From a virus: 64,000 nt of DNA. This document shows, piece by piece, positions 8,664-63,140 of this stretch (position 1 is its first letter; every line of letters begins with the position of its first letter). The stretch lies in IMG/VR virus record IMGVR_UViG_3300029092_000103. The stretch is one strand, 5' to 3'. The notes beneath the pieces are model-generated. The model was not told where the DNA came from. It worked only from the letters and a program-made list of their open reading frames with translations, and did not search any database. A program made the position numbers and the translations under genes.

Positions 8664-9083
8664 ATGGGCAGAAAGAACCGACCTGTAAAAATACGTAAGA
8701 AGTCGCTTCCTGATGTCACCAGAATTCAGCCGCCAAAGCGGATGGACATCTGGTACGCACATTTGAGAGAGAACACTGGAACCTCAGTGCAGGAGGGCAG
8801 TCGTCCGGTGCTGGTCATCAGCAATGATATGGCAAATAAGAATTCTGATGTGGTCACTGTGATCCCGCTGACTAGTCAGATGAAGAGAATTGAACTGCCG
8901 ACGCACTGCATTATTCATGATCTGCTGGACGAGGATTCTGTTGTTCTGGCAGAGCAGATCACTGCAATTCCGAAGTGGAGATTACACAGGAAACTGTGCA
9001 GCTGCACGGATGAAGTGCAGGTAAGTGAAATAGAAAGAGCTGTAAAGGTACAGCTTGGATTGGAGGACGAAACCAATGAGTAA
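8664..9083 (+). CDS. mazF: MazF/PemK-family endoribonuclease toxin (EndoA/NdoA-like), with a basic N-terminal extension of about 26 aa
   Basis: DIWYAHL...GSRPVLVISND...VVTVIPLTSQMKRIELPTHCIIH...DSVVLAEQITAIPKWRL aligns nearly collinearly with B. subtilis EndoA (DVYFADL...GVRPVLVIQND...AIVAAITAQ..KLPTHVEI...DSVILLEQIRTIDKQRL). The alternative start at 8742 lacks an RBS. Confidence 0.85.
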   Translation: MGRKNRPVKIRKKSLPDVTRIQPPKRMDIWYAHLRENTGTSVQEGSRPVLVISNDMANKNSDVVTVIPLTSQMKRIELPTHCIIHDLLDEDSVVLAEQITAIPKWRLHRKLCSCTDEVQVSEIERAVKVQLGLEDETNE

Positions 9084-10143
9084 GATCATCACCTGTGAAC
9101 AGGTCAGCAATGGCCATCCAGATAAGATCTGTGACCAGATCGCAGATGCCATCGTGACCGACATTCTCCAGCATGACAGGAACGCCCGTGTGGCGATCGA
9201 GTGTCTGCTGAAAAAGAGCCAGCTCTTTATTGCCGGCGAAGTCACCACCGATTATCGGCCAAACTATCAGCAGATCGTTCACGATGTGTTCAACCGCATC
9301 GGTACCGAAAAGTTGGGGTGGAATCTGACCGAGCTTCTTCGCATCGGCATTCTGGTGGACAAGCAGTCGCCGGATATTGCGCTTGGTGTGGACAAGGGCG
9401 GTGCCGGTGATCAGGGAATTATGTATGGCTACGCCACCAACGAGACGGCAGAGCAGATGCCGATCCCGTACATGGTCGCCACCAAGTTCCTGCAGCTGTT
9501 GAAGGACCATCCGTCTAAGATGTTCCGGGCAGATGCCAAGGCGCAGGTCAGCTACGATTACGACACCGGTCGTATCACCACCTTCCTCTGCTCCGTGCAG
9601 CACAGCCCGGATGTGGAGGTCAGCGACTTCCGGCACATCATCGAATCCATGATGGTGCTTGCCGCCTGCGAGTATGGACTGGACGGTGATTTCACGAAGC
9701 TGGTCAATCCGACCGGTCGTTTTGTGCTGGGTGGCAGTTACGCTGACTGTGGTGTGACTGGTCGGAAGCTGGCGTGCGATACCTACGGCGGCATTGGTCG
9801 CATGGGTGGCGGTGCTCTGAGCGGTAAAGACCCCACCAAGGTGGACCGCTCTGCAGCATACATGGCGAGGAAGATTGCCAAGGACATTGTGCAGGCGGGC
9901 TACGCTGACAAGTGCGAAGTCCAGCTGGCTTACGCCATCGGCGTGGTGCAGCCGGTCGGTGTGTCGGTGGAGTGCTTCGGTACGGAGCATCAGTCCCTTG
10001 ACTTCATCGAAGCCTACGTCCATGACAGCTATGACCTGACCCCGCAGGGTATCATCAAGCGGCTGGGACTGCTGGATGTAGATTACAACAAGGTCAGTGC
10101 TTACGGTCACTTTGGTAAGGCTGGTCTTCCGTGGGAGGACTGA
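9076..10143 (+). CDS. metK: S-adenosylmethionine synthetase (methionine adenosyltransferase), phage-encoded
   Basis: Canonical MetK motifs are present: GHPDKICDQIADAI, GAGDQGIMYGYA, DTYGG...GGGALSGKDPTKVDRSAAY. ATG 9076 lies 9 nt after GGAGG. Confidence 0.9.
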   Translation: MSKIITCEQVSNGHPDKICDQIADAIVTDILQHDRNARVAIECLLKKSQLFIAGEVTTDYRPNYQQIVHDVFNRIGTEKLGWNLTELLRIGILVDKQSPDIALGVDKGGAGDQGIMYGYATNETAEQMPIPYMVATKFLQLLKDHPSKMFRADAKAQVSYDYDTGRITTFLCSVQHSPDVEVSDFRHIIESMMVLAACEYGLDGDFTKLVNPTGRFVLGGSYADCGVTGRKLACDTYGGIGRMGGGALSGKDPTKVDRSAAYMARKIAKDIVQAGYADKCEVQLAYAIGVVQPVGVSVECFGTEHQSLDFIEAYVHDSYDLTPQGIIKRLGLLDVDYNKVSAYGHFGKAGLPWED

Positions 10144-11693: not shown

Positions 11694-11904
11694 GATTATC
11701 GTTGTGTTTCCGATGTTCAACACCGGGGGTATCTGTGTACATGCGATTGACGATGCGGAAGATAAGGTGCTGGCATCTGTGAACGGGGAAAACCCGGAAT
11801 GGTGCGAGATGGCTGAACAGCCGCAGGAAGATGGCGAGGAGATGGAGTCGGGCTTTGTGTTCGGCTCCTTTTTCGTGCCGTTCTCCGGGGTCATGCGCGT
11901 GTGA
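11680..11904 (+). CDS. Hypothetical small protein (74 aa)
   Basis: ORF overlapping the stop of the previous gene. Weak RBS. Confidence 0.3.
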   Translation: MRMSKIIVVFPMFNTGGICVHAIDDAEDKVLASVNGENPEWCEMAEQPQEDGEEMESGFVFGSFFVPFSGVMRV

Positions 11905-11926
11905 ATCTGAACGAGGAGGAGCTTAC

Positions 11927-13195
11927 ATGAAAGCAACCGCTGAACTGAAAATGCTGCCGGTTTCCGTACTCAAGCCGGCCGCATACAATCCCCGGAAAAA
12001 GCTGAAGCCGGGGGACAAGGAGTACGAAAAAATCAAGAACTCCATTACGGAGTTCGGGTTCGCTGATCCGCTGGTGGTCAATGCCGATATGACGATCATC
12101 GGCGGCCACCAGCGTCTGACCGTTGCGATGGAGCTGGGCTACACTGAAGTGCCTTGTGCGGTGGTGGACATCGACAAGACCAGAGAGAAAGCCCTGAACA
12201 TTGCGCTCAATAAGATCACGGGTGCATGGGATGATTCCCTGCTGGCTGACCTGTTGAAAGATATCGAAGATTCCAACTTCGACCTTGGCAAGACGGGCTT
12301 TGACCCGCCTGAGATCGAGACGCTGTTCAACAAGGTACACAGCAAAGAAGTCAAGGAAGATGACTTCGATGTGGAATCCGAGCTAAAGCAGCCATGCTTC
12401 TCCAAAGAGGGCGACCTCTGGCATCTGGGAAAGCACAGCGTTCTGTGCGGCGATTCCACCAAAGCAGAATGCTACGACACCTTGATGGATGGCACCAAAG
12501 CCAACCTTGTGCTTTCGGACCCGCCTTACAATGTAGACGTGGAAGAAACGGCCGGCAAGATCCTGAACGACAACATGGGCGATTCGGAATTCTACCAGTT
12601 CCTGCTGGCAGCGTTTCAGCAGATGCACGAGCATCTGGCCGATGACGGCTCTATCTACATTTTCCATGCAGACACCGAGGGGCTGAACTTCCGAAAGGCA
12701 TTCAAGGATGCAGGGTTCTACCTGTCCGGGTGCTGTATCTGGAAGAAGAATGCTCTGGTGCTGGGCCGCAGTCCTTACCAGTGGCAGCACGAGCCGTGCC
12801 TCTACGGTTGGAAACAGAAGGGCAAGCACCAGTGGTATTCCGACCGGAAGCAGACGACTATTTGGGAGTATGACCGGCCGAAGTCCAACAAGGACCATCC
12901 GACCATGAAGCCCATCGGCCTGATGAGTTATCCCATCCGCAACTCGACCATGACCAACGGCATCGTTCTCGACCCGTTCCTCGGCAGCGGCTCGACGCTG
13001 ATTGCCTGTGAGAAAACCGACCGTGTGTGCCGGGGTATTGAGCTGGACCCGAAGTTCGTGGATGTTATCGTGAAGCGGTACATCGAACACAGCGAGGGTC
13101 ACTACGATGATGTGTATGTTATCCGGGATGGTCAGAAGCTGAAGTTCGAGGAAGTAGCAACCTTTGAGCCGGAAAGCGAGGACGCCGATGCCTGA
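11927..13195 (+). CDS. ParB-like nuclease N-terminal domain fused to a DNA methyltransferase (pfam01555-type N6A/N4C; DPPY motif)
   Basis: N-terminal ParB-like core (GGHQRL, PLVVNADMTIIGGHQR). Motif IV VLSDPPYN. C-terminal FxGSGST-like region (LDPFLGSGSTLIA). GAGGAGGA RBS precedes ATG 11927. Confidence 0.85.
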   Translation: MKATAELKMLPVSVLKPAAYNPRKKLKPGDKEYEKIKNSITEFGFADPLVVNADMTIIGGHQRLTVAMELGYTEVPCAVVDIDKTREKALNIALNKITGAWDDSLLADLLKDIEDSNFDLGKTGFDPPEIETLFNKVHSKEVKEDDFDVESELKQPCFSKEGDLWHLGKHSVLCGDSTKAECYDTLMDGTKANLVLSDPPYNVDVEETAGKILNDNMGDSEFYQFLLAAFQQMHEHLADDGSIYIFHADTEGLNFRKAFKDAGFYLSGCCIWKKNALVLGRSPYQWQHEPCLYGWKQKGKHQWYSDRKQTTIWEYDRPKSNKDHPTMKPIGLMSYPIRNSTMTNGIVLDPFLGSGSTLIACEKTDRVCRGIELDPKFVDVIVKRYIEHSEGHYDDVYVIRDGQKLKFEEVATFEPESEDADA

Positions 13196-13961
13196 TGTGA
13201 AATGCGTTCTCATCCATGACAACTTCCAGAACTTCAAGTCCTACAACATCCCCAAGGCGCAGCTGGTGATTGCAGACATTCCGTACAACATCGGTACGGA
13301 TTTCTACGCCAGCCGGCCGGACTGGTATGTAGATGGCGACAACAAAAATGGGGAGAGCAGTAAGGCGAGGAAGGCAGCGTTCAATACCGACTTCACTTTC
13401 AATATCGCAGAGTATTTCCACTTCTGCAACCGCCTGCTGAAGAAAGAACCCGGCACGGGTGAAAAAGATGCGCCGTGCATGATCGTGTTCTGTGCGTTCC
13501 AGCAGATCCCGAAAGTAATCACCGAAGCCGAGAAATACGGCTTCAAGAATTATATCCCTCTGGTGTTCTGCAAGAACTACAGTCCGCAGGTGCTCAAAGC
13601 CAATATGAAGATCGTGGGCGCAACGGAGTACGCGCTGGTGCTGTACCGGGGCAAGCTCCCGAAGTTCCGCAATCTCGGTGAGGACGGTAAGTCCCACATG
13701 ATCTTCAACTGGTTTGACTGGAAGAGAGATGGGAAGGAGTATCCGAAGATCCATCCCTCCCAGAAACCAATCTCCGTGATGAAGCGCCTGATCGAGACTT
13801 TCACTGACCCCGGCGATGTGGTCATTGACCCGTGCGCTGGTAGCGGCTCGACCCTTCGTGCAGCACGAGAGCTGGGGCGCAACAGCTATGGATTTGAAGT
13901 ATCCAGAGATTTTTACCAGAAAGCCAAGGAGCAGATGCTCGGAGAGGAGGATGGCGGATGA
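13188..13961 (+). CDS. DNA methyltransferase, beta-class N6-adenine/N4-cytosine (D-I-P-Y variant)
   Basis: Motif IV IADIPYN precedes motif I VIDPCAGSGSTLRAA. RBS AGGA lies 7 nt upstream of ATG 13188, which overlaps the stop of the previous gene. The ORF track's TTG at 13164 is an alternative start. Confidence 0.8.
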   Translation: MPDVKCVLIHDNFQNFKSYNIPKAQLVIADIPYNIGTDFYASRPDWYVDGDNKNGESSKARKAAFNTDFTFNIAEYFHFCNRLLKKEPGTGEKDAPCMIVFCAFQQIPKVITEAEKYGFKNYIPLVFCKNYSPQVLKANMKIVGATEYALVLYRGKLPKFRNLGEDGKSHMIFNWFDWKRDGKEYPKIHPSQKPISVMKRLIETFTDPGDVVIDPCAGSGSTLRAARELGRNSYGFEVSRDFYQKAKEQMLGEEDGG

Positions 13962-16354
13962 ACACAGAACAGAATAAGCCTTTGACCCTCGGCAGCCTCT
14001 TCGATGGCTCCGGGGGTTTTCCTTTGGGCGGTCTTTTGACCGGGCAGATCACTTCGCTGTGGAGCAGTGAAATCGAGCCGTTTGCCATCCGGGTCACGAC
14101 CAAGCGTCTGCCGTGGGTGAAGCATTACGGTGATGTGTCTGCTATCAGCGGTGCAGACCTGCCGCCCGTGGACATCATCACTTTTGGTTCACCCTGTCAG
14201 GATATGTCCATCGCCGGTAAGAGGGACGGTCTGGATGGTTCACGGTCCAGCCTGTTTTACGAAGCAATCCGAATCGTGAAGGAAATGAGGTGTAAGACCA
14301 ATGGAGAAAAACCAAGATTTATCGTCTGGGAGAATGTGCCAGGGGCCTTCTCCTCAAACAAAGGACAGGACTTCAAAGCAGTCCTCGAAGCCGTCATCGG
14401 TGTTAAAGAACCGGCCGCCACGGTGCCTGCGCCTGAGAAGAAAGGATGGCCCGACGCCGATTACTATGTGGGAGACGGATGGAGCGTCGCGTATCGAGTT
14501 CTTGATGCACAATGGTGGGGCGTTCCCCAAAGAAGAAAACGCATCTACCTTGTCGCAGATTTTGCAGACCAGAGTGCCCCAAAGGTACTATTTGAGTCCG
14601 AAGGCATGTCTCGGTATTCTGCGGAGGGCTTCCGTGCGTGGCAAAGAGCTGCCGCCGGTGCTGAAGGCAGCATTGGAGAGACAGGCTGCTGTGGATTCGA
14701 CGGATACAACGGATGCCTGACAGGAAATGTATCCTCGACCATCGGTGAAAACTGCGGGATGTCTACAGGCCGAAATAGTGTGGTGGTCCTGAACGACCAG
14801 GGCGGCACACAGATGGATGTTTCCGAAGATGTGACCGGGACCCTCCGGACGCAGGAGCATGGGCATCAGCCTTGTGTTCTGGAAGCAGCCGGCTTCTGTA
14901 CCGAGCATTCGGCAAATGCCAGAAGCATCGGGTATGAGGAAGAACGGTCGCCAACCCTCCGGGCTAGGGTCGTGCCTGCCGCCATCGCATTGGAAAATCA
15001 TCCAGCGGATAGCCGAGTGAAGATTTCCGAGGATGGCAAGGTGCAGACACTGACAAGTCGGTGTGGGACAGGAGGCGGCAATGTCCCAATGGTCATGGAT
15101 ACAGTTGAGAACTCCCCGGCAGTCACATTGAAGATCCGTTCTGGGTGTGAGGGCGGCGGCAAGGGAGCCATCTGGCAGGAAGAAAAGTCTGCTACTCTTG
15201 GCTGTAACAATGACCAGACGCTATTCGTTCCCAAGTGCTATGGTGTCTGCTCGAAAGCCAGCCATTCCATGATGTCCGACAATCCGCACAGTGGATTCTA
15301 TGAAGCCGAAACTTCCCGGACGCTGGACCGCAGCGGCGGTGACCCGACGTGCAATCAAGGTGGGCTGTGTATCTGTGAACCTGTTGTCTGCGTGGATCAG
15401 GGCGGTGGTAAGTCGAACTGCACAGTGGATGAACGGGTGGCACCACCCCTTGCCTGTACCCACGGTGGCGCACCGGCTGTTGCCTTTACCCAGAACCAGC
15501 GGGATGAAGTCCGGAATCTAGGGGATAAGTCAGCGGCACTAGCAGCAGAGCCGGGGATGAAGCAGCAGACCTTTGTGGCACAGCCGGAAGATGTGACGGC
15601 TTTCCATGTAAACCAGCGCAATGAGCTGATCGACCTGCATGGTAAGTCCGGTGCGCTTATGGCAACCCGGAGCGACCAGATGCAGACCTTCGTCCTGCAG
15701 GGCAACATGATCGGCCGCAAGGACGAGAATGGTCCGCAGGGAGATGGCGTCAATGAGGATGTATGCTTTACCTTGGATGCGACAGACCGACACGCAGTCT
15801 GCACACCGGAAGATGTGTATGCCATGACCACCGGCTCCTTTATGAGAATAGAGGAAAATGTATCTCCGACCCTGATGGCAAGGGATTACAAAGACCCGGC
15901 CACCATCGCACCGGTGCCGCATCTGAACGAGGGTGTTATGGGAACGGTGGCAACCGGAGCACATCCAAGCGGTTTTAACGGGCAGGACGCTTTTAATGAC
16001 CGGCTGGTCATTGACAACCCGGAAGTACAGCCTGCACCTGTGACCTACACCGTCCGCCGCCTGACACCGACAGAGTGTGCCAGACTGCAAGGCTTCCCAG
16101 ACTGGTGGTGCAGAAACCTTGGAACGGAAAATCCGACTGAGGAGGAGCTTGCATTCTGGGCAGATGTGTTTGAAACGCACCGTAAGATCGTGACACACGC
16201 GAAAAAGCCGAAGACGGAGAAGCAGATCCGTAAATGGCTCACTGACCCTTATACGGATTCGGCGGAATACCGTATCTGGGGCAACGGCATTTGCTTGGCA
16301 AACGCATTTTTTGTTCTGGCCGGCATCGCATGGTGCGCAGGACTGGAAGAATAA
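13958..16354 (+). CDS. DNA (cytosine-5)-methyltransferase, unusually large (798 aa), with a variable region of about 450 aa suggesting several target-recognition domains
   Basis: Motif I LFDGSGG, motif IV GSPCQDMS, motif VI FIVWENV, and C-terminal motifs RRLTPTECARLQGFPDWW. A long region from about 14600 to 16000 lacks conserved motifs. Confidence 0.85.
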   Translation: MNTEQNKPLTLGSLFDGSGGFPLGGLLTGQITSLWSSEIEPFAIRVTTKRLPWVKHYGDVSAISGADLPPVDIITFGSPCQDMSIAGKRDGLDGSRSSLFYEAIRIVKEMRCKTNGEKPRFIVWENVPGAFSSNKGQDFKAVLEAVIGVKEPAATVPAPEKKGWPDADYYVGDGWSVAYRVLDAQWWGVPQRRKRIYLVADFADQSAPKVLFESEGMSRYSAEGFRAWQRAAAGAEGSIGETGCCGFDGYNGCLTGNVSSTIGENCGMSTGRNSVVVLNDQGGTQMDVSEDVTGTLRTQEHGHQPCVLEAAGFCTEHSANARSIGYEEERSPTLRARVVPAAIALENHPADSRVKISEDGKVQTLTSRCGTGGGNVPMVMDTVENSPAVTLKIRSGCEGGGKGAIWQEEKSATLGCNNDQTLFVPKCYGVCSKASHSMMSDNPHSGFYEAETSRTLDRSGGDPTCNQGGLCICEPVVCVDQGGGKSNCTVDERVAPPLACTHGGAPAVAFTQNQRDEVRNLGDKSAALAAEPGMKQQTFVAQPEDVTAFHVNQRNELIDLHGKSGALMATRSDQMQTFVLQGNMIGRKDENGPQGDGVNEDVCFTLDATDRHAVCTPEDVYAMTTGSFMRIEENVSPTLMARDYKDPATIAPVPHLNEGVMGTVATGAHPSGFNGQDAFNDRLVIDNPEVQPAPVTYTVRRLTPTECARLQGFPDWWCRNLGTENPTEEELAFWADVFETHRKIVTHAKKPKTEKQIRKWLTDPYTDSAEYRIWGNGICLANAFFVLAGIAWCAGLEE

Positions 16355-54418: not shown

Positions 54419-55570
54419 ATGAAAATACTCCGTATCACCGCACAGGGACTTCCACTGTTTAAAGAAAACCTGGATATCTGTTTTTACACACAGCAGCGCG
54501 TAAGTGAGGATGATAAGTGTAGTCTATATAATTTGATTGATAATTATTATCTTCACACTACCAATGCGTTTATTGGAATCAATGCGTCTGGTAAGACCTC
54601 TGTGTTAAAGGTTATCAATTTGGCTCTGAACATTGTAAAGAATGAGCCCATTAATCATGTAGAGGCAAAAACTATTCTTGGTGGAGCAAGAGAAGCTACG
54701 ATTTGCACTTATTTTTATGATAATCGTAAATATGTCTGCTGCCTAGAAACTGTAATTACGGCAAAAAAAGCAAAGGCAGGAGATTATGTGTATTCGATCC
54801 TGTCCGAAAGACTGTGGGAAAAATCAATTGTCAGTATCAAGTCGAAGAAGTATTTGACGGATTTCACCGGAATGGAGCCTGTGGCATCGCGTAATAGCGA
54901 TGAAGCATATCTTTCAGATGATGTCAGCTTTATCATTGCACATAATAAAAAAGCAAATGATACGGTGGAAGTGTTTAGCTTACTTTCTTACACGAATGTG
55001 AATGTGCTTCCCTTTACTGAGGATATTCCATTGGAAGTGATTGCTTTTCTGGACCCAACCATTGAAAAATTGTGCTTCGAGCAAACAGAGGGAAAGACAT
55101 TTATCCATTTGAAATTCCGAAATGAAGATGAAATTGTTTTAAACAATGCAGTGGACCTTGAGCAGTATCTGTCTTCCGGTACAATCAAAGGTATTATTAC
55201 ATTCTCAATGGTGAAGGAGGTACTTCAATCTGGTGGATACTTGCTGGTAGATGAAATTGAAAACCATTTTAATAAGGAAATTGTAACAACACTGATTCGT
55301 TTCTTTATGGATGGCCGACTTAACAAAAAAGGTGGAACACTGATTTTTACAACACATTATCCAGAGTTGTTGGATGAATATGACCGCAATGATGGAATTT
55401 GTATCGTAAGAAACCGTAATGGCATCACAGTAGAAAACCTGAGCTATATATTGAAACGTAATGATATTAAAAAAAGCGATGCATATCAGAGTGGATTTCT
55501 GGAAGGAACGACCCCTGCGTATGAGGCCTATATGCGCTTGAAGAAGAACCTGGCTGCTTCAATTCATTAA
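54419..55570 (+). CDS. AAA_21/ABC-like ATPase (AbiLi-like, OLD-family ATPase-like)
   Basis: Walker A GINASGKTSV. Walker B/D-loop LLVDEIENHFN. H-loop TTHYPELL. The sequence is AT-rich relative to the prophage. Confidence 0.75.
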   Translation: MKILRITAQGLPLFKENLDICFYTQQRVSEDDKCSLYNLIDNYYLHTTNAFIGINASGKTSVLKVINLALNIVKNEPINHVEAKTILGGAREATICTYFYDNRKYVCCLETVITAKKAKAGDYVYSILSERLWEKSIVSIKSKKYLTDFTGMEPVASRNSDEAYLSDDVSFIIAHNKKANDTVEVFSLLSYTNVNVLPFTEDIPLEVIAFLDPTIEKLCFEQTEGKTFIHLKFRNEDEIVLNNAVDLEQYLSSGTIKGIITFSMVKEVLQSGGYLLVDEIENHFNKEIVTTLIRFFMDGRLNKKGGTLIFTTHYPELLDEYDRNDGICIVRNRNGITVENLSYILKRNDIKKSDAYQSGFLEGTTPAYEAYMRLKKNLAASIH

Positions 55571-55582
55571 GGAGGCGGCAGA

Positions 55583-56104
55583 ATGGAATTGGCAAAATAT
55601 AAGGCGTGTATCTGCGAGGGTTCGGCGGAGGCTGCGATTATCGATATACTGGTCGATAATGACCTTTTGATCTTTACCTGAGAAGAAATGCTCAATGAAG
55701 AAGTTATCCGATGCAGGAACGCAAAGAAATTTGAGGAACGTTACTTACGTAAGGAATTTGCAGATCAGGTTTCTGTCATACGGATTCTAGATTCGCGCAG
55801 GGAAGAATTTCGACTCAGCAAGGCATACGAAAATAAGATTGATGTTATTAATGTCATTACAGCTCCCGAAATAGAAATGTTGATTATCCATAATGAGGGA
55901 GAGTATGAACATTTTAAGCGTTCTGGGAAGAAGCCGAGTGAGTTTTGTAAAGTGAATCTCCGTATGCATAATGTAAAGTCGTATGAATTCGTGAAAGACT
56001 ATTTTAGTGATCCACAAACACTGGTGGGGGCGATTAAAGAATATCGTAGAACCGCAAATATCCCAAATGGAGAATACTGCTTGTCTGACTTGCTAAAGCA
56101 ATGA
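55583..56104 (+). pseudogene. RloB/DUF4276-like (Toprim-like, AbiLii-like) gene interrupted by an in-frame TGA at 55679-55681
   Basis: N-terminal ...KACICEGSAEAAIID matches the RloB/DUF4276 CEGxxE signature. The 32-aa ORF (55583-55681) and the 138-aa ORF (55688-56104) are in the same frame, separated only by TGA. GGAGG lies 7 nt before ATG 55583. Confidence 0.55.
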
Positions 56105-56325
56105 GAAACGGCAGTCATGTACAAGGCCACAGGAGATATAAGAAAAGAAGCGCATAATTGAAAATAATTGGCCCACTGGCGCACTGTGTAGAATCCTACA
56201 TGGTACGTTGGTGGGTTTCTTTTTTTGCCTTACCCGCATGAACCACAGACAGCACCTCGGTGTGATCCGAAGTGCAGCTGTGGCTTATGCGGGCTTTTTT
56301 GTTATATGGTCAACGAGTTACAAAG

Positions 56326-56667
56326 TCAGATGCCTAACCCGTATAAAATCGCTTTCATCTCCTTTACCATCCGGGTGAGGATTTCCTGTTCAGTTGCATT
56401 GCAGTCCAAAAGCAGTCGGTGAATCTCCGTATCAGCTGTAGAGGTGGAATGCGTCAGGCTGTCTACGAGAAGGTCGTCTGCCGATACATTCAAGATATTT
56501 GCAATCTGCACGAGAGATTCCAAACTGGGCTTACTCTTTCCGAGTTCAATGTTGCTGATGTGCTTATAGCCAACCTCACACCTGAAAGCGAGTTCTTCCT
56601 GTGATAAATTTCCTTTGTTCCTAAAATTGGCGATGCGCTGTCCAAGCGCAGTATAGTCAATTGCCAT
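56326..56667 (-). CDS. XRE-family helix-turn-helix (HTH) transcriptional regulator (putative repressor)
   Basis: HTH LSQEELAFRCEVGYKHISNIELGKSKPSLESLVQIANILNV. AAGGAGG RBS before ATG 56667 on the minus strand. Confidence 0.75.
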   Translation of the reverse strand: MAIDYTALGQRIANFRNKGNLSQEELAFRCEVGYKHISNIELGKSKPSLESLVQIANILNVSADDLLVDSLTHSTSTADTEIHRLLLDCNATEQEILTRMVKEMKAILYGLGI

Positions 56668-56802
56668 ACAGTCCTCCTTATGGTTTACCCGCATAAGGCT
56701 GATATGATTATCTCGCAGGAGAAAATGTATGGCAACAGAGTGAGGACACTCTAAGACCGCAGAGCCACTTACCCCTATCAGTAGTGTGGTCTTAGCCTGT
56801 TA

Positions 56803-56852
56803 TTCCACCTGATAGGTGGAATTTTCGACTTCATTCCATCTGACAGGTGGAA
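56803..56852. promoter_or_regulatory. Two 19-bp palindromic operator-like sites (TTCCACCTGATAGGTGGAA and TTCCATCTGACAGGTGGAA) in the divergent region between the XRE gene and the AAA_25 gene
   Basis: Read from the sequence at 56803-56821 and 56834-56852. Confidence 0.55.
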
Positions 56853-56918
56853 GTCAAAGCACCGCACATATTCTATAATATAAATGTAGTAAAAGACTGC
56901 AATTGGAAAGGAAAGACA

Positions 56919-57896
56919 ATGGCAAGTAAAGAGCAAGTGGGGATTCTTACATTATATAGTGATGTACAGGCGACTTCTGTTCGCTGGCTGTGGTATCCGT
57001 TCATTGCAGTTGGAAAGATCACATTGCTTCAAGGCGACCCCGGTGACGGAAAGTCCACAATGATGATGAATCTGATTGCCGGTTTGTCCAATGGTGGGAG
57101 CCTCCCGGATGGTAAGCCGGTCGGGATGCCACAGAGGGTTATTTATCAGTGTTCGGAAGATGGCGTTTCGGATACCATCAAGCCTCGGCTGGAAAAGTGC
57201 GGAGCCGATTGCAGGAATGTGGCGTTCATAAATGAAGAAACCTACAGTGGGCTGACGCTGGATGATGAACGTATCCGGCAGGCTATTATAGAATTCCGGC
57301 CGAGGCTGGTAGTCATCGACCCGATACAGGCGTATCTCGGAAGTGACTCTGACCTCCAGATTGCAGGCAGAGCCAGAAAGTTGATGCAGCGTCTTGGAAT
57401 GTGGGCATCCGTATATGATTGTGCCATTGTGCTGATCGGTCACCTCAACAAGAAAGAGGGAACAAAAGGTCTGTATCGGAGTCTCGGCAGTATCGATGTG
57501 GTGGCGGCTGCCCGGAGTGTCCTGCAGGTGGAGAGAGATCCAGAGAACGCCGATATCCGCATCGTCCGGCAGATAAAGAACAGTCTGGCTCCATCCGATG
57601 GTGAAATCCGGTTTTCGATAACAGCAGAGCAGGGCTTCAAATGGCTGGAATGTGAAGTTGCACCAAATCCGGCAGCAGAGCCGGAAGCACCAAACTTTGA
57701 ATCGAAAGCCGAGAAAGCGGCCTATCTGATTAAGAAACTGCTTTCAGAGGGTGATATGAGATCCAGAGAAATCTACATAAGGCTGAGCGATGAAGGTATC
57801 AGCCGCAGGACAGCAGAAAACATAAAAAAGGAACTCGGCATCCGAAGTTACCGGAGGATGCGTCAGTGGTATTGGAGCATCCAGCCGGAAGATTGA
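56919..57896 (+). CDS. AAA_25 / RecA-DnaB-like P-loop ATPase (RepA-like)
   Basis: Walker A LLQGDPGDGKST, Walker B LVVIDPIQAY, and GHLNK. Confidence 0.7.
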   Translation: MASKEQVGILTLYSDVQATSVRWLWYPFIAVGKITLLQGDPGDGKSTMMMNLIAGLSNGGSLPDGKPVGMPQRVIYQCSEDGVSDTIKPRLEKCGADCRNVAFINEETYSGLTLDDERIRQAIIEFRPRLVVIDPIQAYLGSDSDLQIAGRARKLMQRLGMWASVYDCAIVLIGHLNKKEGTKGLYRSLGSIDVVAAARSVLQVERDPENADIRIVRQIKNSLAPSDGEIRFSITAEQGFKWLECEVAPNPAAEPEAPNFESKAEKAAYLIKKLLSEGDMRSREIYIRLSDEGISRRTAENIKKELGIRSYRRMRQWYWSIQPED

Positions 57897-57906
57897 GAGG
57901 AAACAA

Positions 57907-59763
57907 ATGACAAAAAGTGAACGGCAAGAGCGCAAACAAAAAATTAGAGAACGTTATAAAGGCACGGATACATCCAGAATTAAAGTAATTCCTGCGAAAT
58001 CTTCAGAGAACTTGGAAACAAGCAACACCATTCGTCGTGTTGCTGCTTATGTACGTGTTTCAACTGATAATGATGAACAGACTTCATCCTATGAGCTTCA
58101 GAAGAATTATTATACTAAGTATATCAAGGCGCAACCAGGTTGGGAGTTCGCTGGAATTTATGCTGACGAGGGCATCAGTGGTACTTCTCTTGAGCACCGA
58201 AAGGGAATGCAGAAGCTAATTGAAGATTGTAAAGCTGGGAAAATTGACCTTATACTTACAAAATCGATTTCTCGATTCGCTAGAAACATTGTAGATTGCC
58301 TTTCAATAGTTGGTATGTTGAAGGATCTTGAGCCACCCGTAGGTGTAAAGTTTGAAACAGATAATATTTCAACGTTAGACATCAATGGACGGATGCTCTT
58401 GTCCATTGTGGCTTCTTTGGCAGAGGAGGAATCTCATAATAAATCTCTTCTGATGAATTGGTCTCTTGAACAACGTTATAAAGACGGAATGTTTCTTATT
58501 CCAGAACTTTTGGGGTACGATCTGGATGAAAATGGTAACCTTGTGGTTAATCCAGAAGAAGCACAGACTGTAAAGGTGATTTATTATTTGTATTTGAACG
58601 GATTCTCGCTTACGGAAATTGCTGAACTGTTGACCGATTATAGAAGGAAAACAAAATTAGGTAATACAGAATGGAATCCAAGTTCTTTGGCTGCTGTGAT
58701 CGCCAATGAAAGACATTGTGGAGATCTTTTAGCAAGAAAAACTTACACACCCAATTATTTGACTCATAAATCGAAGAAAATCAAAAATAACGAACGTGCA
58801 CAATATTGGAATTTCGACCATCATGAGGCAATTGTATCCAGAGAGGTCTATAATGCAGCAAATCATCTGCGAGCATCCCGGAGCTATGCAAAGCGAAAAC
58901 GTCCTCTGCCAGTTTTGAGTGTGGTCGATGACGGCATTCTTCGTGGATATGTACCTTTCGACAAAGACTGGACAGGATTTTCAGCAGAGGAATATCGAGA
59001 GGCTTCTGAAAGTGTAATGCTGGAGAAAGAAACTGACACGGTAGAAGTCATGAATCGTTTGGATTTGACCGGCTATGAAGTAGTCCGTGCACAGTATTTC
59101 TCGACTTTGCGGAATCCGGCCATGACGATTTCAAATGGAAGGTTGCGGTTTAATACAGCTTGTCTGAAAAAATTTGAAAATGTTGAGTATGTAGAACTGC
59201 TTCTGAACTCGGTTGACCGCTGTGTTGCTATCCGCCCCTGCGAAAAGAGCAATCCGAATGCAATTCATTGGGGGCGATTGAAAGAGGGACGGTGGTGTGC
59301 CAGTACACTTGTTTGCCGTGGTCTAGCAAAAGCACTTTTTGACATCATGGAATGGGAAGATGGCTTAAAATACCGTTTTCGTGGACAGTTTGTGGAGCAG
59401 GGCGATAATAAGTTGATGCTCTTTGAACTGGACGAACCGGAAATGGTCAAAGTCGAAGAAATCGTTCTTCCGCCCAAGGGAGAAGATGCTGAAGGCGAAA
59501 CAGTTAAGCAGACGATTTACATTCTTCCGCCGGAATGGGCAGGAACCTTTGGACAACCAATCACAAGCATTGCGCAGATTAGCCTCTTACAACAGAAACA
59601 TTATGCCGGAAACTGGGATGTACTTAGACCAGCAGCAGAAATAGAAGAAATGAATACATTTACGGTAGAAAATTTAAATGCGTTGCTTCACGAAGCGGAA
59701 GAAATAATGGAAGGATGGACTGATACAGATGGAGGAGAACAAAACGAGTGTTCCGATGAATGA
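57907..59763 (+). CDS. Large serine recombinase (third copy, AT-richer)
   Basis: RRVAAYVRVSTDNDEQTSSYELQ...ISGTS...SISRFARNI, recombinase domain, and a distinctive C-terminal domain (RLRFNTACLKKF...VAIRPC). Confidence 0.85.
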   Translation: MTKSERQERKQKIRERYKGTDTSRIKVIPAKSSENLETSNTIRRVAAYVRVSTDNDEQTSSYELQKNYYTKYIKAQPGWEFAGIYADEGISGTSLEHRKGMQKLIEDCKAGKIDLILTKSISRFARNIVDCLSIVGMLKDLEPPVGVKFETDNISTLDINGRMLLSIVASLAEEESHNKSLLMNWSLEQRYKDGMFLIPELLGYDLDENGNLVVNPEEAQTVKVIYYLYLNGFSLTEIAELLTDYRRKTKLGNTEWNPSSLAAVIANERHCGDLLARKTYTPNYLTHKSKKIKNNERAQYWNFDHHEAIVSREVYNAANHLRASRSYAKRKRPLPVLSVVDDGILRGYVPFDKDWTGFSAEEYREASESVMLEKETDTVEVMNRLDLTGYEVVRAQYFSTLRNPAMTISNGRLRFNTACLKKFENVEYVELLLNSVDRCVAIRPCEKSNPNAIHWGRLKEGRWCASTLVCRGLAKALFDIMEWEDGLKYRFRGQFVEQGDNKLMLFELDEPEMVKVEEIVLPPKGEDAEGETVKQTIYILPPEWAGTFGQPITSIAQISLLQQKHYAGNWDVLRPAAEIEEMNTFTVENLNALLHEAEEIMEGWTDTDGGEQNECSDE

Positions 59764-60421
59764 ACAGTCAGTAGAAAATGATAGAGATGCACGGGCTGAA
59801 GAACTGGAAAGTACATTTTCGTATGACGGATACCAAGTCGTGCGTAAGGAACTTTTTGCACATCTGCGTGACCCGGCCATCGTGATCCGCAAGGACAGCA
59901 TCACGTTCAACACGGCCTGTATCACTGGGCTGGAGGATGTGGTCTATGTACACGTCATGTTCAACAGCGACTTGAAGCGCATTGTCGTGCGCGGCTGCGA
60001 TGAAAATGAAAAAGATGCGCTACGCTGGTGCATCGCCAAGGAGGACAAGCGCAAAAGTCGGAAGATGTCCTGCAAGCCTTTTTCAGAACTGGTCTATAAG
60101 GAAATGGGATGGGATAGGGAATGTCGGTACAAGATGCTGGGCTACAGAATCACCTTTGAGGGTGAAACTTTGTACGTTTTTGATCTGCTCGTGCCAGAGG
60201 TTTTTTATGAACCCCAGAAGCGCAAGAAGGGTGCTGCTCCTCAGACACAGGATGTAAGACCTGCGAATGCGAGAAAGGGATTTTACCCAGATGATATTGC
60301 AGGTACTTTCGGTGTGCCAGTGGAAGAACATCTAAAAGAATCCGAAATCAAGCAGATGGACGGATATGTGTCGATGGGCATCTTGACAGGAAAAAATGAA
60401 CCCGACACCGGAAATAAATAA
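59729..60421 (+). CDS. Hypothetical protein; a stand-alone paralog of the third recombinase's C-terminal domain
   Basis: YQVVRKELFAHLRDPAIVIRKDSITFNTACITGLEDVVYVHVMFNSDLKRIVVRGC aligns with the recombinase's EVVRAQYFSTLRNPAMTISNGRLRFNTACLKKFENVEYVELLLNSVDRCVAIRPC. Confidence 0.5.
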   Translation: MEENKTSVPMNEQSVENDRDARAEELESTFSYDGYQVVRKELFAHLRDPAIVIRKDSITFNTACITGLEDVVYVHVMFNSDLKRIVVRGCDENEKDALRWCIAKEDKRKSRKMSCKPFSELVYKEMGWDRECRYKMLGYRITFEGETLYVFDLLVPEVFYEPQKRKKGAAPQTQDVRPANARKGFYPDDIAGTFGVPVEEHLKESEIKQMDGYVSMGILTGKNEPDTGNK

Positions 60422-60477: not shown

Positions 60478-60954
60478 GTGAATGAAAGAACATGGAATCA
60501 GCGGATGCTGGGCCTGACCTTTAATGCTGTAGATGGAAGAATCACTATCTTCCGCAGTACATTGGAGGAACTCGGCTGGCCGACCAACTATCGGTTTCTG
60601 TATAATCGGAAAGCAAAACAGGTAGCAGTCCAGAACTGCGCGGCCGAAGATGCAGGTTCTCATAAGACACCGAAGCTGAATGCGAGCAACAGCTGCGAAA
60701 TCAAGTGTATGGCGTTTGTGAGGATGATCTATCGGGATATGCGGTGGAACCAGGACAATACATATCGTCTGGAGGGGAAAAGTATCCCCGGACAGCAGCT
60801 TGTGAGCTTCGATTTATCTTCCCCGTTTTTAGTGGAAAACGGAATAGCTCTGGACGAAAATCTAAGCCCAACAAAGCCCCTGTGTGGCGAAGAAATGTCC
60901 TCTGCGGAAAGTTCCTCGGCCTTGCCGATAAAACGCGACAGTGGGGCAGTGTAA
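60478..60954 (+). CDS. Hypothetical protein; second stand-alone paralog of the same domain (GTG start)
   Basis: RITIFRSTLEELGWPTNYRFLYNRKAKQVAVQNC... has the same pattern. AAGGAGGGG lies 6 nt before GTG 60478. Confidence 0.45.
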   Translation: MNERTWNQRMLGLTFNAVDGRITIFRSTLEELGWPTNYRFLYNRKAKQVAVQNCAAEDAGSHKTPKLNASNSCEIKCMAFVRMIYRDMRWNQDNTYRLEGKSIPGQQLVSFDLSSPFLVENGIALDENLSPTKPLCGEEMSSAESSSALPIKRDSGAV

Positions 60955-61113
60955 GGGGCGTGTGGCGAAGCAGGCCAAAAAAAGCCCACCGGGTCACGGT
61001 CCAGGATGCTTGCAAGGCAGCAAGGCGGAAGGTGACCGGGTGGGCAGGAGACATTTTGGATGAGTCTACTCAACAAGTGAATAAAATCACTTTTGTATCT
61101 GCGAACGACAAAA

Positions 61114-61420
61114 ATAAGTGATTAAGCTCACTTATAGCTATTGAAAATAAGTGATTCTGTTCACTTAGAAAAAGTGAGCTTTTTACGCCATCCTAGATTT
61201 TAGATGAAGTCGTCATCCAGCAAAAATAAGTGAATATAATCACTTAAAAACATCAAAAATCCAAATAAGTGAGCTTAATCACTTATCCGAAGAAAAGTGA
61301 ACATTTTACTCCCTGACCGGGTTTGAGGTCGTCGATTAGTCCATAATCGACGGCTTCTTTTTTATGCTCAAAAAAGGGGGTATGTAGCTACATAACGCAA
61401 TAAGTGAGCTTTATACGCCA
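61114..61420. repeat. Iteron cluster: four 22-bp palindromes ATAAGTGA-N6-TCACTTAT/A plus three AAGTGAGCTTT(T/A)TACGCCA-type half-site variants
   Basis: Palindromes at 61114-61135, 61147-61168, 61226-61247 and 61265-61286. Half-site variants at 61169-61190, 61291-61310 and 61398-61420. Also the TGTAGCTACA palindrome at 61383-61392. Confidence 0.7.
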
Positions 61421-61574
61421 CTGTCGAGCAACTTCGCCGCGGTATGTTTAGTCCAGAAATGTCTACTTAACAAAATCAGTTGAGGTCTGATGGTCTATGG
61501 TGGAGCGTAATACACATGCGATAATAGGCGTTTTCGCATAAATATACGTTGCATTTTACTGTGAAAATCATGTT

Positions 61575-61811
61575 TTGTGCAGTAGGTTGTTAATACTGAT
61601 AAGAGAGTTAAAGAAAAAATTGAAAATTCCTCATTTATATCCCAATGGATCTCTATGTCTATACTATCCGGATTATAACGAATGGAATGCAGATGACTTA
61701 TGGGCTGATTCTATAATTCCATGGACCTGCCTTTGGCTGTATTTTTTTGAATTATGGATAGCAACTGGGGAGTGGTTGGGTGGAGGAATTCATCCAGGAA
61801 ATAACAATTGA
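61575..61811 (+). CDS. Hypothetical small protein (78 aa), AT-rich
   Basis: ORF only. Confidence 0.3.
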   Translation: MCSRLLILIRELKKKLKIPHLYPNGSLCLYYPDYNEWNADDLWADSIIPWTCLWLYFFELWIATGEWLGGGIHPGNNN

Positions 61812-61959: not shown

Positions 61960-62343
61960 ATGAATTTATCAAAAATACATCATATTGCAATTATTGTATC
62001 TGACTACGAAGCCGCAAAGAATTTTTATGTGAACAAGCTGGGATTCTCTGTCATCAGAGAAAACTACCGCCCGGAGCGTAAGGACTGGAAGCTGGATCTT
62101 CGTATTAATGAGCACACAGAGCTGGAGATTTTCGCTGAGGAAAATCCGCCGAAGCGTGTGAACTGCCCGGAAGCCTGTGGGCTGCGTCACCTTGCGTTCT
62201 GCGTTGATAGCGTGGAACAGACAGTGAATGAGCTGGCAGAGGTCGGGATTGAATGTGAGCCGATCCGGGTTGACGATTACACCGGCAAGAAGATGACTTT
62301 CTTCCATGACCCGGACGGACTGCCGCTGGAATTGCACGAATAA
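61960..62343 (+). CDS. VOC-family (glyoxalase/bleomycin-resistance/dioxygenase) protein
   Basis: IHHIAIIVSDYEAAKNFYVNKLGF...HLAFCVDS...FFHDPDGLPLEL is the VOC fold signature. Confidence 0.8.
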   Translation: MNLSKIHHIAIIVSDYEAAKNFYVNKLGFSVIRENYRPERKDWKLDLRINEHTELEIFAEENPPKRVNCPEACGLRHLAFCVDSVEQTVNELAEVGIECEPIRVDDYTGKKMTFFHDPDGLPLELHE

Positions 62344-62345
62344 TT

Positions 62346-63140
62346 ATGGGAGAGAAAAGAGCGTATAAAGCCAGAAAGCCTGGCGGTGGCAGGAAAAAGC
62401 TGAAGCCAGAATATGATGCAGAGAAAAATCTGAAAGAGCAGATGAATGCTGCTGTATCCCTCTATAAAAACAACTCTCTCCAAGCCATTGCAAATGAACT
62501 GACTCTCAACCCTATCAAGGTTCGCAAGCTGCTCATCACAGCTGGTGTGTATGAGTCGGATATAGCGGAGATGGTACGGCGTACTTTTTATAGGTATAGA
62601 AAAATACAGAACTATAAAGAAGCAATCCTCTCCACCGCATCAGAACTCAAGCTGTCCAAAGCCTCGGTCACTTCGTATCTGCCGTATGAAAAGGGCGTGT
62701 ATTTCCCAAGCACAACCTCAACAGAGAAGATCAGTGTGGGTGCAGAGCGGCAGAGGAGATACCGGGCAACGAAGAAGCTGCGAGCAGCGCCGACAGAGGA
62801 ACATCTGTGGGAAGTGGTTCTGGCATATCAAAAAGTGCGTTTTAAAACCTATTCCGGCTTGCCATTCTCTTATGAAATACGAAAAGGCAGAAGCGGCGAA
62901 TACACAAAAGAGCTCTGGATCGACAGGCGAGAGAGCAGCAAGAGTCTGGCGTGGAGCTCGGTGTTGCTGGCGCTGGGCAATGTAAAAGAGGTCGGAGCAG
63001 TGGTTGACCGTCCGAAAGCGTTGGGTGATATTCGTGGAGTGACCTACATCTACGGGATGTTCTACCGGTTTGGGCTGATTGATGTGCCGGACGCGGTAAA
63101 GGAGAAGATGAATAAGCGCGGGTGTATTTCCAAGGGCTGA
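62346..63140 (+). CDS. Hypothetical protein (264 aa) with a basic N-terminus
   Basis: ORF immediately after the VOC gene. Confidence 0.5.
   Translation: MGEKRAYKARKPGGGRKKLKPEYDAEKNLKEQMNAAVSLYKNNSLQAIANELTLNPIKVRKLLITAGVYESDIAEMVRRTFYRYRKIQNYKEAILSTASELKLSKASVTSYLPYEKGVYFPSTTSTEKISVGAERQRRYRATKKLRAAPTEEHLWEVVLAYQKVRFKTYSGLPFSYEIRKGRSGEYTKELWIDRRESSKSLAWSSVLLALGNVKEVGAVVDRPKALGDIRGVTYIYGMFYRFGLIDVPDAVKEKMNKRGCISKG

Follow-up and report, generated by a model that had tools for sequence, protein, structure and literature searches.

Near one end of a 64,000-nucleotide viral DNA sequence (IMG/VR record IMGVR_UViG_3300029092_000103; below, at its full length, the window) lies a short AT-rich region crowded with palindromic repeats. 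The initial annotation, made from the letters alone, took these repeats for binding sites and suggested three uses: an origin of replication for a satellite or plasmid-like element, an attP or accessory-factor array for a serine recombinase, or an operator array. Which of these is the array likely to be, and which protein might bind it? The analysis presented here places it at the right end of a tailed prophage, next to a five-gene module (XRE, AAA_25, SerRec3, p230 and p158) that includes a large serine recombinase (LSR). Of the several options, the accessory array is best supported by the sequences and still leads, because the half-sites are conserved and lie beside what appears to be the crossover region of a serine recombinase.

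The array consists of five palindromes and three related half-sites

The core motif AAGTGA-N6-TCACTT occurs exactly five times in the window, with starts at 61075, 61116, 61149, 61228 and 61267, all inside 61075-61284; in 100 dinucleotide-preserving shuffles both its mean and its maximum were 0. The original description of a palindrome cluster was thus sound and, if anything, slightly understated. All four of the 22-bp palindromes that it listed are present, and a fifth core copy (61075-61092) lies 22 bp to the left of the point where the cluster had been said to begin. Over the full 22-bp form, ATAAGTGA-N6-TCACTTAT, two of the four are perfect (61114-61135 and 61265-61286), each being the exact reverse complement of the other; the remaining two, at 61147-61168 and 61226-61247, agree with it at 21 of 22 positions. 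Spacing between successive palindromes is irregular (41, 33, 79 and 39 bp).

The three half-site variants proposed at the same time are also real. These h sites (h1 at 61172, h2 at 61295 and h3 at 61402) begin with the left half found in the palindromes and continue into GCTTTWTACGCC. A search of the window for AAGTGAGCTTTWTACGCC with up to three mismatches matched only at these positions, all on the plus strand, where 0.06 matches were expected and no shuffle reached three. Altogether, 13 of the 47 AAGTGA/TCACTT hexamers in the window fall within the ~330 bp between 61075 and 61407. The setting, too, is as first described: 61122-61575 contains no open reading frame (ORF) of at least 40 amino acids, GC content is 31-36% in the array versus 47-54% in the flanking genes, and the distances given to neighbouring genes are right (the p158 stop codon is at 60954 and the AAA_25 gene ends at 57896).

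Beyond a long hairpin, H1, the order is palindrome 1; palindromes 2 and 3 with h1; a small hairpin; palindromes 4 and 5 with h2; the intrinsic terminator T2; a short palindrome, TATGTAGCTACATA; h3; and the terminal phage arm (Table 1). In one group of relatives, clade B, a unit of two palindromes plus one h site occurs twice, followed by T2 and h3, so that the array looks like a duplicated unit. The stem of the small hairpin (61189-61206) differs by locus yet stays paired (CATCCTA/TAGATG here, CACCC/GGGTG in locus L002). The possibility that palindromes 2 and 5 bound an invertible segment as a 22-bp inverted repeat was rejected, since all loci have the same internal orientation and two of them (L014 and L021) lack the matching spacers.

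The half-sites are conserved as DNA within two lineages

Relatives were collected by a two-palindrome pattern search of IMG/VR, which returned 23 loci, and protein-anchored searches supplied further examples; a census anchored on GGGGYGTGTGGCGAAGC returned too few contigs for use. In 18 of the 23 loci the module adjoins the array. Five (L006, L007, L015, L016 and L020), with two such palindromes each, come from one unrelated phage of high GC content and were not considered further. The half-sites are retained at about 30 related prophage ends, where the spacers vary and three to six copies occur. The half-sites are either invariant or carry single, one-sided substitutions (AAGTAA, TTGCTT, TCACCT, TCACTG). 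In some clade A loci, for example, palindrome 1 carries AAGTAA, TTGCTT or TTACTT on one side, and in most of them the right half of palindrome 4 reads TCACTG. Constant half-sites combined with free spacers fit DNA sites bound by a sequence-specific dimer, as far as can be predicted from such alignments, and do not fit RNA stems, a reading that is disfavoured because compensatory changes are absent. The proposal of a repeated protein-binding-site architecture is thereby upheld as a prediction, the half-sites being invariant in relatives.

Apart from the five loci of the unrelated phage, none of the other loci fetched (211 in all) had the palindrome, even in host flanks. Neither these loci nor the window contained copies outside arrays, which, over the DNA covered by the window and the fetched loci, sets the repeats apart from REP (repetitive extragenic palindromic) or BIME (bacterial interspersed mosaic element) sequences. 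The AAGTGA array is confined to two sub-lineages of module-bearing prophages. The initial annotation had made conservation in related elements a test of its proposal, and the outcome is divided: the repeats are conserved within these two lineages and replaced or absent elsewhere. Clade C (AAA_25 91%, SerRec3 81% and p230 86% identical) has one h-like site only, before T2. Clade D has no array, and its single AAGTGA was rejected as an h site because it lies in the ribosome-binding region of a downstream gene. In other lineages the same slot is filled differently. AATGAT-N3-ATCATT is found there in L075, in three to four copies, and CTCATCTCCAAAACCA in L077, in three. Direct repeats occupy it in the L074 group (one to three of TGTTTATGCCTGAnnGCACC) and in L095 (six of TTTAGCCCATCT, at intervals of 31-43 bp). 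With different or absent arrays in sister lineages, the stretch that separates the p158 gene from the phage end appears to hold a lineage-specific cis-acting array. The array would also seem to be dispensable, since sister lineages with the same module have none or a different one.

The array lies at the right terminus of a tailed prophage

The window covers most of a tailed prophage that itself exceeds 64 kb. Its first part (PolA, antirepressor, VapE primase-helicase, SNF2, MazF, MetK and methyltransferases) is followed by TerS, TerL, portal, tape measure, holin and lysin. After the lysin come LSR1, which has a zinc ribbon, LSR2, p180 and a variable cargo slot, occupied here by AAA_21 and p138, and then XRE (minus strand), AAA_25, SerRec3, p230, p158, the array and the prophage end. 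This order, from lysin to the p158 homolog, is shared by eight long Lachnospiraceae/Coprococcus contigs. The idea of a satellite or plasmid-like element can accordingly be set aside, since the module forms the end of a complete tailed prophage.

More than 25 related loci are homologous to one another as far as 61456-61466 of the window and no further. Beyond this junction the right flanks diverge, with 15 different ones in clade A alone. Five of these 15 begin at codon ~84 of ugd (UDP-glucose dehydrogenase), at TACGAT; other right flanks begin within other host genes. Taken together, the end of homology and the varied host flanks indicate that the array forms the non-coding right-hand end of the prophage, 45-390 bp inside the predicted attR and 35-390 bp from the junction with host DNA. 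The distance from h3 to the end of the arm is constant at 58-59 bp in clades A, A' and B, though the intervening sequence differs. Such a number of target sites agrees with the multi-targeting LSRs already known (PMC10083194), though the DUF4368 typical of these is missing from SerRec3. An attP reconstituted from the right arm and a presumed left arm had no match in viral or metagenome collections, nor did blastn of 60950-61560 find any match in phage and plasmid collections.

A 13-bp direct repeat (GTCTACTCAACAA and GTCTACTTAACAA) brackets the array, its second copy lying exactly at the junction. In four loci (L009, L017, L019 and L024) a further tandem unit of 41 bp contains this 13-mer again, along with a CAGTGATTATAATCACTC palindrome. 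The direct repeat could be the mark of a former end or of a secondary site for recombination.

Three candidate binding proteins

An operator array for the XRE repressor finds no support, as this protein has operators of its own. The XRE/AAA_25 intergenic region contains two palindromes, unlike those of the array, of 19-21 bp, ATTCCACCTGATAGGTGGAA (56802-56821) and ATTCCATCTGACAGGTGGAA (56833-56852), 31 bp apart and just upstream of a TATAAT, with the pair pattern TTCCACCTGAyAGGTGGAA. In other lineages these operators keep their spacing and their sequence shifts with XRE type (TTCCACC.., TGCCACC.., TGCTACC.., TGTGACC..), independently of whether the AAGTGA array is present. No AAGTGA was found in the XRE/AAA_25 region (55956-57340). 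Because its own operators vary independently of the array, XRE is an unlikely binder; the operator variation itself looks like a set of immunity specificities. The AAA_25 ATPase is a similarly unlikely candidate, because the C-terminal 60 residues of the protein are near-invariant in lineages with the array, without it and with other motifs.

This leaves p158, whose gene lies immediately upstream of the array. Residues 368-563 of SerRec3, in its C-terminal domain (CTD), show paralogy to p230 (E = 2e-25) and, less strongly, to p158. The p158 core is basic, with an isoelectric point of 9.4, and diverges fastest of the three: across the same loci, core identity is 81-96% for p230, 70-93% for the SerRec3 CTD and 39-87% for p158. 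An AlphaFold2 model of p158 had a mean confidence score (pLDDT) of 35 and no usable fold.

A tentative role in recombination

The account that we tentatively favour, as a possibility and not yet a probability, is that p158, perhaps joined by its paralogs, binds the array as a set of lineage-specific sites and that recombination at the nearby phage end is modulated in this way. When XRE repression is relieved, the operon of AAA_25, SerRec3, p230 and p158 would be expressed. The p158 protein would then load on the eight sites, in the phage arm about 45-390 bp inside the crossover, with a dimer on every palindrome and either a monomer or a hetero-pair on every h site, and p230 and the SerRec3 CTD might bind together with it. 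A nucleoprotein complex formed in this way on one side of attR (or of attP after excision) could bias or gate the action of the serine recombinase at attR/attP, in direction or efficiency, much as excision factors, directionality factors or Mu-type enhancer/operators do. Transcription out of or into the phage end might incidentally be blocked.

The identity of the binder, and the effect of its binding on recombination, are here what we infer. The co-variation of p158 with the motifs is only coarse, and the clade B protein is closer to that of array-less clade C than to that of clade A. The recombinase does not require the array universally, given that clades C and D, with a SerRec3 79-81% identical, lack it.

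A bolder version, to which we give rather little credence, is that the palindromes and h sites are arm-type accessory sites of an undescribed LSR machine. In such a machine an MraZ/AbrB-like domain would replace the zinc ribbon and coiled coil, p230, p158 and the RecA-like ATPase would be obligatory partners, and the lineage-specific nucleoprotein array on one phage arm would set site choice or direction.

Competing explanations

Several features of the locus could instead point to transcription, with a phage regulator (p158 or another protein) occupying the sites as an operator or a roadblock. Such a regulator might repress a weak promoter in the array, such as one using the TATAAT of palindrome 4, or halt RNA polymerase as it exits the phage into host genes or enters the antisense strand of the recombinase operon from the host. 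The 18-bp dyads do resemble classical operators, and clade A loci retain the TATAAT even when decay has affected the right half of palindrome 4. Terminators bracket the array, so that outward transcription would be stopped both ways: on the minus strand U7 follows H1, which makes it a leftward terminator, and T2, conserved in clades A, B, C and in L075, faces rightward. The pairing of an h site with the hairpin after it is also conserved, the one at T2 being kept in clades A, B and C. However, there is no convincing sigma-70 promoter in the array in either direction (the best -35 matches are 2-4 of 6, the scan count is below that of shuffles, and the best promoter-like element, the TATAAT of palindrome 4, has a poor -35), and no gene or Rfam RNA lies between the terminators. 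Thirteen half-sites are far beyond the need of one promoter, and the same terminators are kept in array-less sister lineages. We regard this account as unlikely. The repeats might alternatively act as RNA: the operon transcript would pass H1 and end at T2, leaving five stem-loops in its 3' untranslated region to stabilise the mRNA or to form competing antiterminator/terminator pairs (AAGUGA:UCACUU vs UCACUU:AAGUGA plus a U tract). H1 indeed lacks a plus-strand U tract in the array-bearing clades A (to which the window belongs) and B, while the corresponding T-run is present in clades C, E and in L096; and the right half of palindrome 3 can pair with the left half of h1 (TCACTT-N5-AAGTGA), followed by a run of five T (U5 in RNA). 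Yet the half-site substitutions are never compensated, the stems are weak (-7.5 to -9 kcal/mol), and it is the stem sequence that is conserved and the loops that are free to vary, the reverse of typical protein-bound hairpins. No Rfam match to the array region was better than E = 0.55, and the direct repeats that fill the slot in other lineages are unable to form hairpins. An RNA function is, in our view, very improbable.

The origin of replication has in its favour an AT-rich, repeat-dense non-coding island and, in the same operon, a RecA/DnaB-like ATPase with PHROG matches to primase/helicase and DnaB-like families. In this scheme an initiator (p158 or the AAA_25 tail) would bind the repeats as iterons and AAA_25 would serve as helicase. 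The lambda origin has four dyad-symmetric iterons, and that of SaPI (the Staphylococcus aureus pathogenicity islands) lies just 3' of rep. Like these and other iteron origins (lambda ori/O, ori/Rep of SaPI and other phage-inducible chromosomal islands, P4 ori/crr), the array is a set of AT-rich, lineage-specific repeats near a helicase-like gene, and the lambda iterons, too, are dyad-symmetric, with a length of 18-19 bp. Lineage-specific arrays also adjoin a variable candidate DNA-binding gene, and those of L095 include direct repeats with a 31-33 bp period. Against this, the repeats do not travel with the putative initiator: the clade C AAA_25, 91% identical and with a C-terminal domain identical at nearly all positions, occurs without the array, and the near-identical AAA_25 of clade D does so as well. 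The array is 3.2 kb from the AAA_25 gene, neither inside it nor directly 3' of it, its spacing is irregular, and the phage has a separate replication module (PolA, VapE primase-helicase, SSB and exonuclease). The best PHROG match of AAA_25 is 'DNA transposition protein', and its family matches are all below curated cut-offs except that to Pfam AAA_25. An origin served by AAA_25 is accordingly not borne out, and an origin of any kind seems improbable. Finally, the sites might serve a global regulator of the host, through which the phage end could sense host physiology. The consensus sites of CRP, B. subtilis Fnr and Rex have the same GTGA-N6-TCAC geometry, a point in favour of such a regulator. 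Close relatives in similar hosts nevertheless carry unrelated motifs, direct repeats or nothing in the same position, the palindrome is absent from the host flanks of other fetched loci, and the flanking AA..TT bases differ from the TGTGA/TCACA consensus, making this the most improbable of the explanations considered.

Comparison with known systems

By analogy, the array would work most like the accessory or enhancer arrays of recombination systems, though we assign it to none of them. The closest conceptual parallel is the operator/enhancer (internal activation sequence, IAS) of phage Mu, other parallels being the accessory sites of res and the arms of lambda attP. In Mu, as here, a cluster of short sites (about ten in Mu) lies near one end of a mobile prophage. 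Those of Mu bind two proteins, repressor c and the MuA transposase, the latter through its domain I-alpha. In both systems the DNA-binding domain of the recombinase also exists as a separate paralogous protein, and an ATPase partner is encoded in the same repressor-controlled early operon (MuB in Mu; AAA_25 here, with its best PHROG match to a transposition protein). However, Mu has a DDE transposase with winged-helix domains, whereas the present module has a serine recombinase with a beta-rich domain. No relation in sequence or fold to MuA, Mu c or MuB is evident, and the sharing of sites between domain and paralog can here only be surmised.

Sites II and III of res (Tn3/gamma-delta) and site II of the Sin and beta systems are likewise inverted-repeat dimer sites on one side of a serine-recombinase crossover, where they build a regulatory synaptic complex that imposes directionality. 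A res site, though, spans about 120 bp with two or three sites of 25-34 bp bound by the resolvase's own C-terminal helix-turn-helix (HTH), whereas the present array has eight sites over about 350 bp, with dyads of 18-22 bp and an LSR. In addition, a terminator hairpin separates the array from the crossover, and sister lineages manage without it.

Canonical serine-integrase att sites consist of one imperfect inverted repeat of 40-50 bp centred on a dinucleotide and need no accessory DNA or complex accessory proteins (PMC5737554). With the attP sites of phiC31, Bxb1, A118 and SPbeta the present locus shares a recombinase gene adjoining the phage end and integration into protein-coding genes (here ugd at TACGAT), at multiple targets. 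It departs from them in that the array is ~350 bp long and ends about 45 bp before the junction, so that it is not the crossover itself. Canonical LSRs also read the distal half-site with a zinc ribbon and coiled coil, whereas SerRec3, with Resolvase and Recombinase domains only, has a different CTD and two free paralogs. The arms of lambda attP (Int arm-type, Xis, IHF and Fis sites) offer a short-site array within a few hundred bp of the crossover that controls the direction of recombination, and the fixed distance of h3 from the crossover is reminiscent of them. Lambda nevertheless uses a tyrosine recombinase, both arms and other proteins, whereas the sites here were seen on the right arm, the left arm not having been recovered. 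Finally, plasmid centromeres (F sopC, R1 parC, P1 parS) resemble the array in that a small, fast-evolving gene for a DNA-binding protein (here a candidate one) directly precedes the repeats, with an NTPase in the same operon and lineage-specific direct or inverted motifs. Unlike these, the present element has no ParA, ParM or TubZ-type NTPase, and it integrates and is not maintained as a plasmid.

The five-gene module and its surroundings

The XRE/AAA_25/SerRec3/p230/p158 module is conserved across many Firmicutes prophages, and its synteny is strict down to about 46% p230 identity. The p230 family comprises 1306 cluster representatives at 50% identity, a single variant occurring on about 900 contigs. 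A literature search found no paper describing the module. SerRec3 had no zinc-ribbon or DUF4368 match; LSR1 in the same window has Zn_ribbon_recom. The translation start used by AAA_25 homologs is probably the ATG at 56919. A scan of a genome collection with p158 identified two loci, one in Blautia schinkii and one on a 4-kb contig binned as Prevotella, which is probably mis-binned.

Table 1. Features of the prophage right end, in window coordinates
Feature	Position	Strand	Remarks
XRE repressor	56326-56694	-	own operators at 56802-56821 and 56833-56852
AAA_25 RecA/DnaB-like ATPase	56847-57896	+	conserved winged-helix-like C-terminus
SerRec3 large serine recombinase	57907-59763	+	Resolvase and Recombinase domains; novel CTD
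p230	59729-60421	+	conserved stand-alone paralog of SerRec3 CTD
p158	60478-60954	+	stand-alone paralog of SerRec3 CTD, hypervariable; candidate array binder
H1, long hairpin after p158 gene	60984-61045	.	-38 kcal/mol, z about -5
13-bp direct repeat, GTCTACTCAACAA / GTCTACTTAACAA	61064-61076 and 61461-61473	+	brackets array; second copy exactly at junction
Palindrome 1, AAGTGAATAAAATCACTT	61075-61092	.	in most clade A loci; absent in L014/L021
Palindrome 2, ATAAGTGATTAAGCTCACTTAT	61114-61135	.	perfect over 22 bp
Palindrome 3, ATAAGTGATTCTGTTCACTTAG	61147-61168	.	
h1, AAGTGAGCTTTTTACGCC	61172-61189	+	small hairpin (61189-61206) directly after
Palindrome 4, ATAAGTGAATATAATCACTTAA	61226-61247	.	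TATAAT inside at 61235-61240
Palindrome 5, ATAAGTGAGCTTAATCACTTAT	61265-61286	.	perfect over 22 bp
h2, AAGTGAACATTTTACTCC	61295-61312	+	directly before T2
T2, intrinsic terminator, rightward	61325-61364	+	14-bp stem-loop and T-run; -22.3 kcal/mol, z = -5.4
h3, AAGTGAGCTTTATACGCC	61402-61419	+	start 58-59 bp before end of conserved phage arm
Terminal phage arm (...GTCCAGAAAT) and junction zone GTCTAC	61420-61466	+	homology of related prophage ends stops here

Beyond the junction, the right flank at 61467-61570 is a patchwork common to L003, L004, L012, L022, L214 and L215, with no intact host gene. It contains further GTCTAC motifs, and clade B loci have up to three decayed copies of the terminal arm (TTTTTCCGnnGAATTAGAGGTGG), which suggests repeated insertion and decay at one locus. 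A 78-amino-acid ORF at 61575-61811 resembles the C-terminal remnant of a larger protein (...PHLYPNGSLCLYYP...W..G.W); it had no Pfam, NCBIfam or PHROG match and is probably a gene fragment in the flank. Further right, a glyoxalase gene (window 61960-63140) recurs beyond the prophage end in L009, L010, L028, L029 and L033, at distances of ~0.4-7 kb with differing gene fragments between, and is 95-98% identical where compared (L009, L010, L028 and L029). A gene for a 264-residue protein usually accompanies it, no p264 homolog having been detected in L033.

Decayed or chimeric copies of the module are numerous (L001, L008 and L030:19601-20200; proteins P0312, P0321, P0329, P0363 and P0379). Among them are deletions that bring p230 codon 70 up to the array, a join of LSR2 with p230 residue 95, and Ugd, LSR1, NusA or AbiEii fused to p158 at short microhomologies. 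Two ugd junctions, at codons ~84 and ~150, are both at TACGAT.

The variable cargo slot (window 54419-56104) between p180 and XRE contains AAA_21 and the 138-amino-acid protein here and in L029, Abi_2 in L026, L027 and L031, and an insertion sequence (IS) in L026 and L027; it is empty in L028, L030, L032 and L033. It looks like a defence-gene hotspot within the prophage. Elsewhere in the window, 8664-10143 and 11831-16354 encode a MazF-like toxin, the MetK SAM synthetase and three DNA methyltransferases, one of them fused to ParB-N, a set typical of anti-restriction or epigenetic functions.

In the left part of the same phage, outside the window (L113:4835-4895), the first early gene upstream of PolA encodes a Sigma70 region-4 HTH protein. 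It is preceded by a hairpin, GGAATCTCCTT...AAGGAGATTCC, that holds the gene's own ribosome-binding site, and by a conserved 345-bp leader; hairpin and leader may form a translational control element. The leader was found in nine of ten metagenome loci, with homology running further left in some, and a search of it against Rfam gave nothing. A role for the array as promoter or operator of this Sigma70_r4 gene (L113:4892-5662) in a circular phage was considered and rejected, the apparent junction in L143 being an IS insertion; the L143 contig begins inside an IS element. Compared with window 300-2240, the PolA region of L143 (5176-8040), a phage 91-98% identical, is ~0.9 kb longer, and the insertion may be an intron, intein or homing element.

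Implications

Large serine recombinases are valued for genome engineering, since they use short, simple sites and one small directionality factor. The present module is atypical for serine integrases, with its non-canonical candidate DNA-binding domain, two free paralogs, RecA-like ATPase and lineage-specific array by the crossover. Taken alone, the array is ordinary regulatory-looking DNA, and if it proved to be only an operator or roadblock it would be ordinary phage regulatory DNA in fact; the recombinase module beside it is abundant, uncharacterised and atypical. If the bolder reading were true, very abundant gut Firmicutes prophages would contain a serine-recombinase counterpart of the 'transposase, ATPase, end-site array' logic of Mu and Tn7. 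Should the direction or efficiency of recombination be set by the array and p158, these two would constitute a new, naturally programmable control layer for serine integrases, programmable because arrays and p158 variants appear to swap together, albeit with coarse co-variation. Such a mechanism would also go some way to account for the variety of host genes that these phages enter, ugd and other capsule genes among them.

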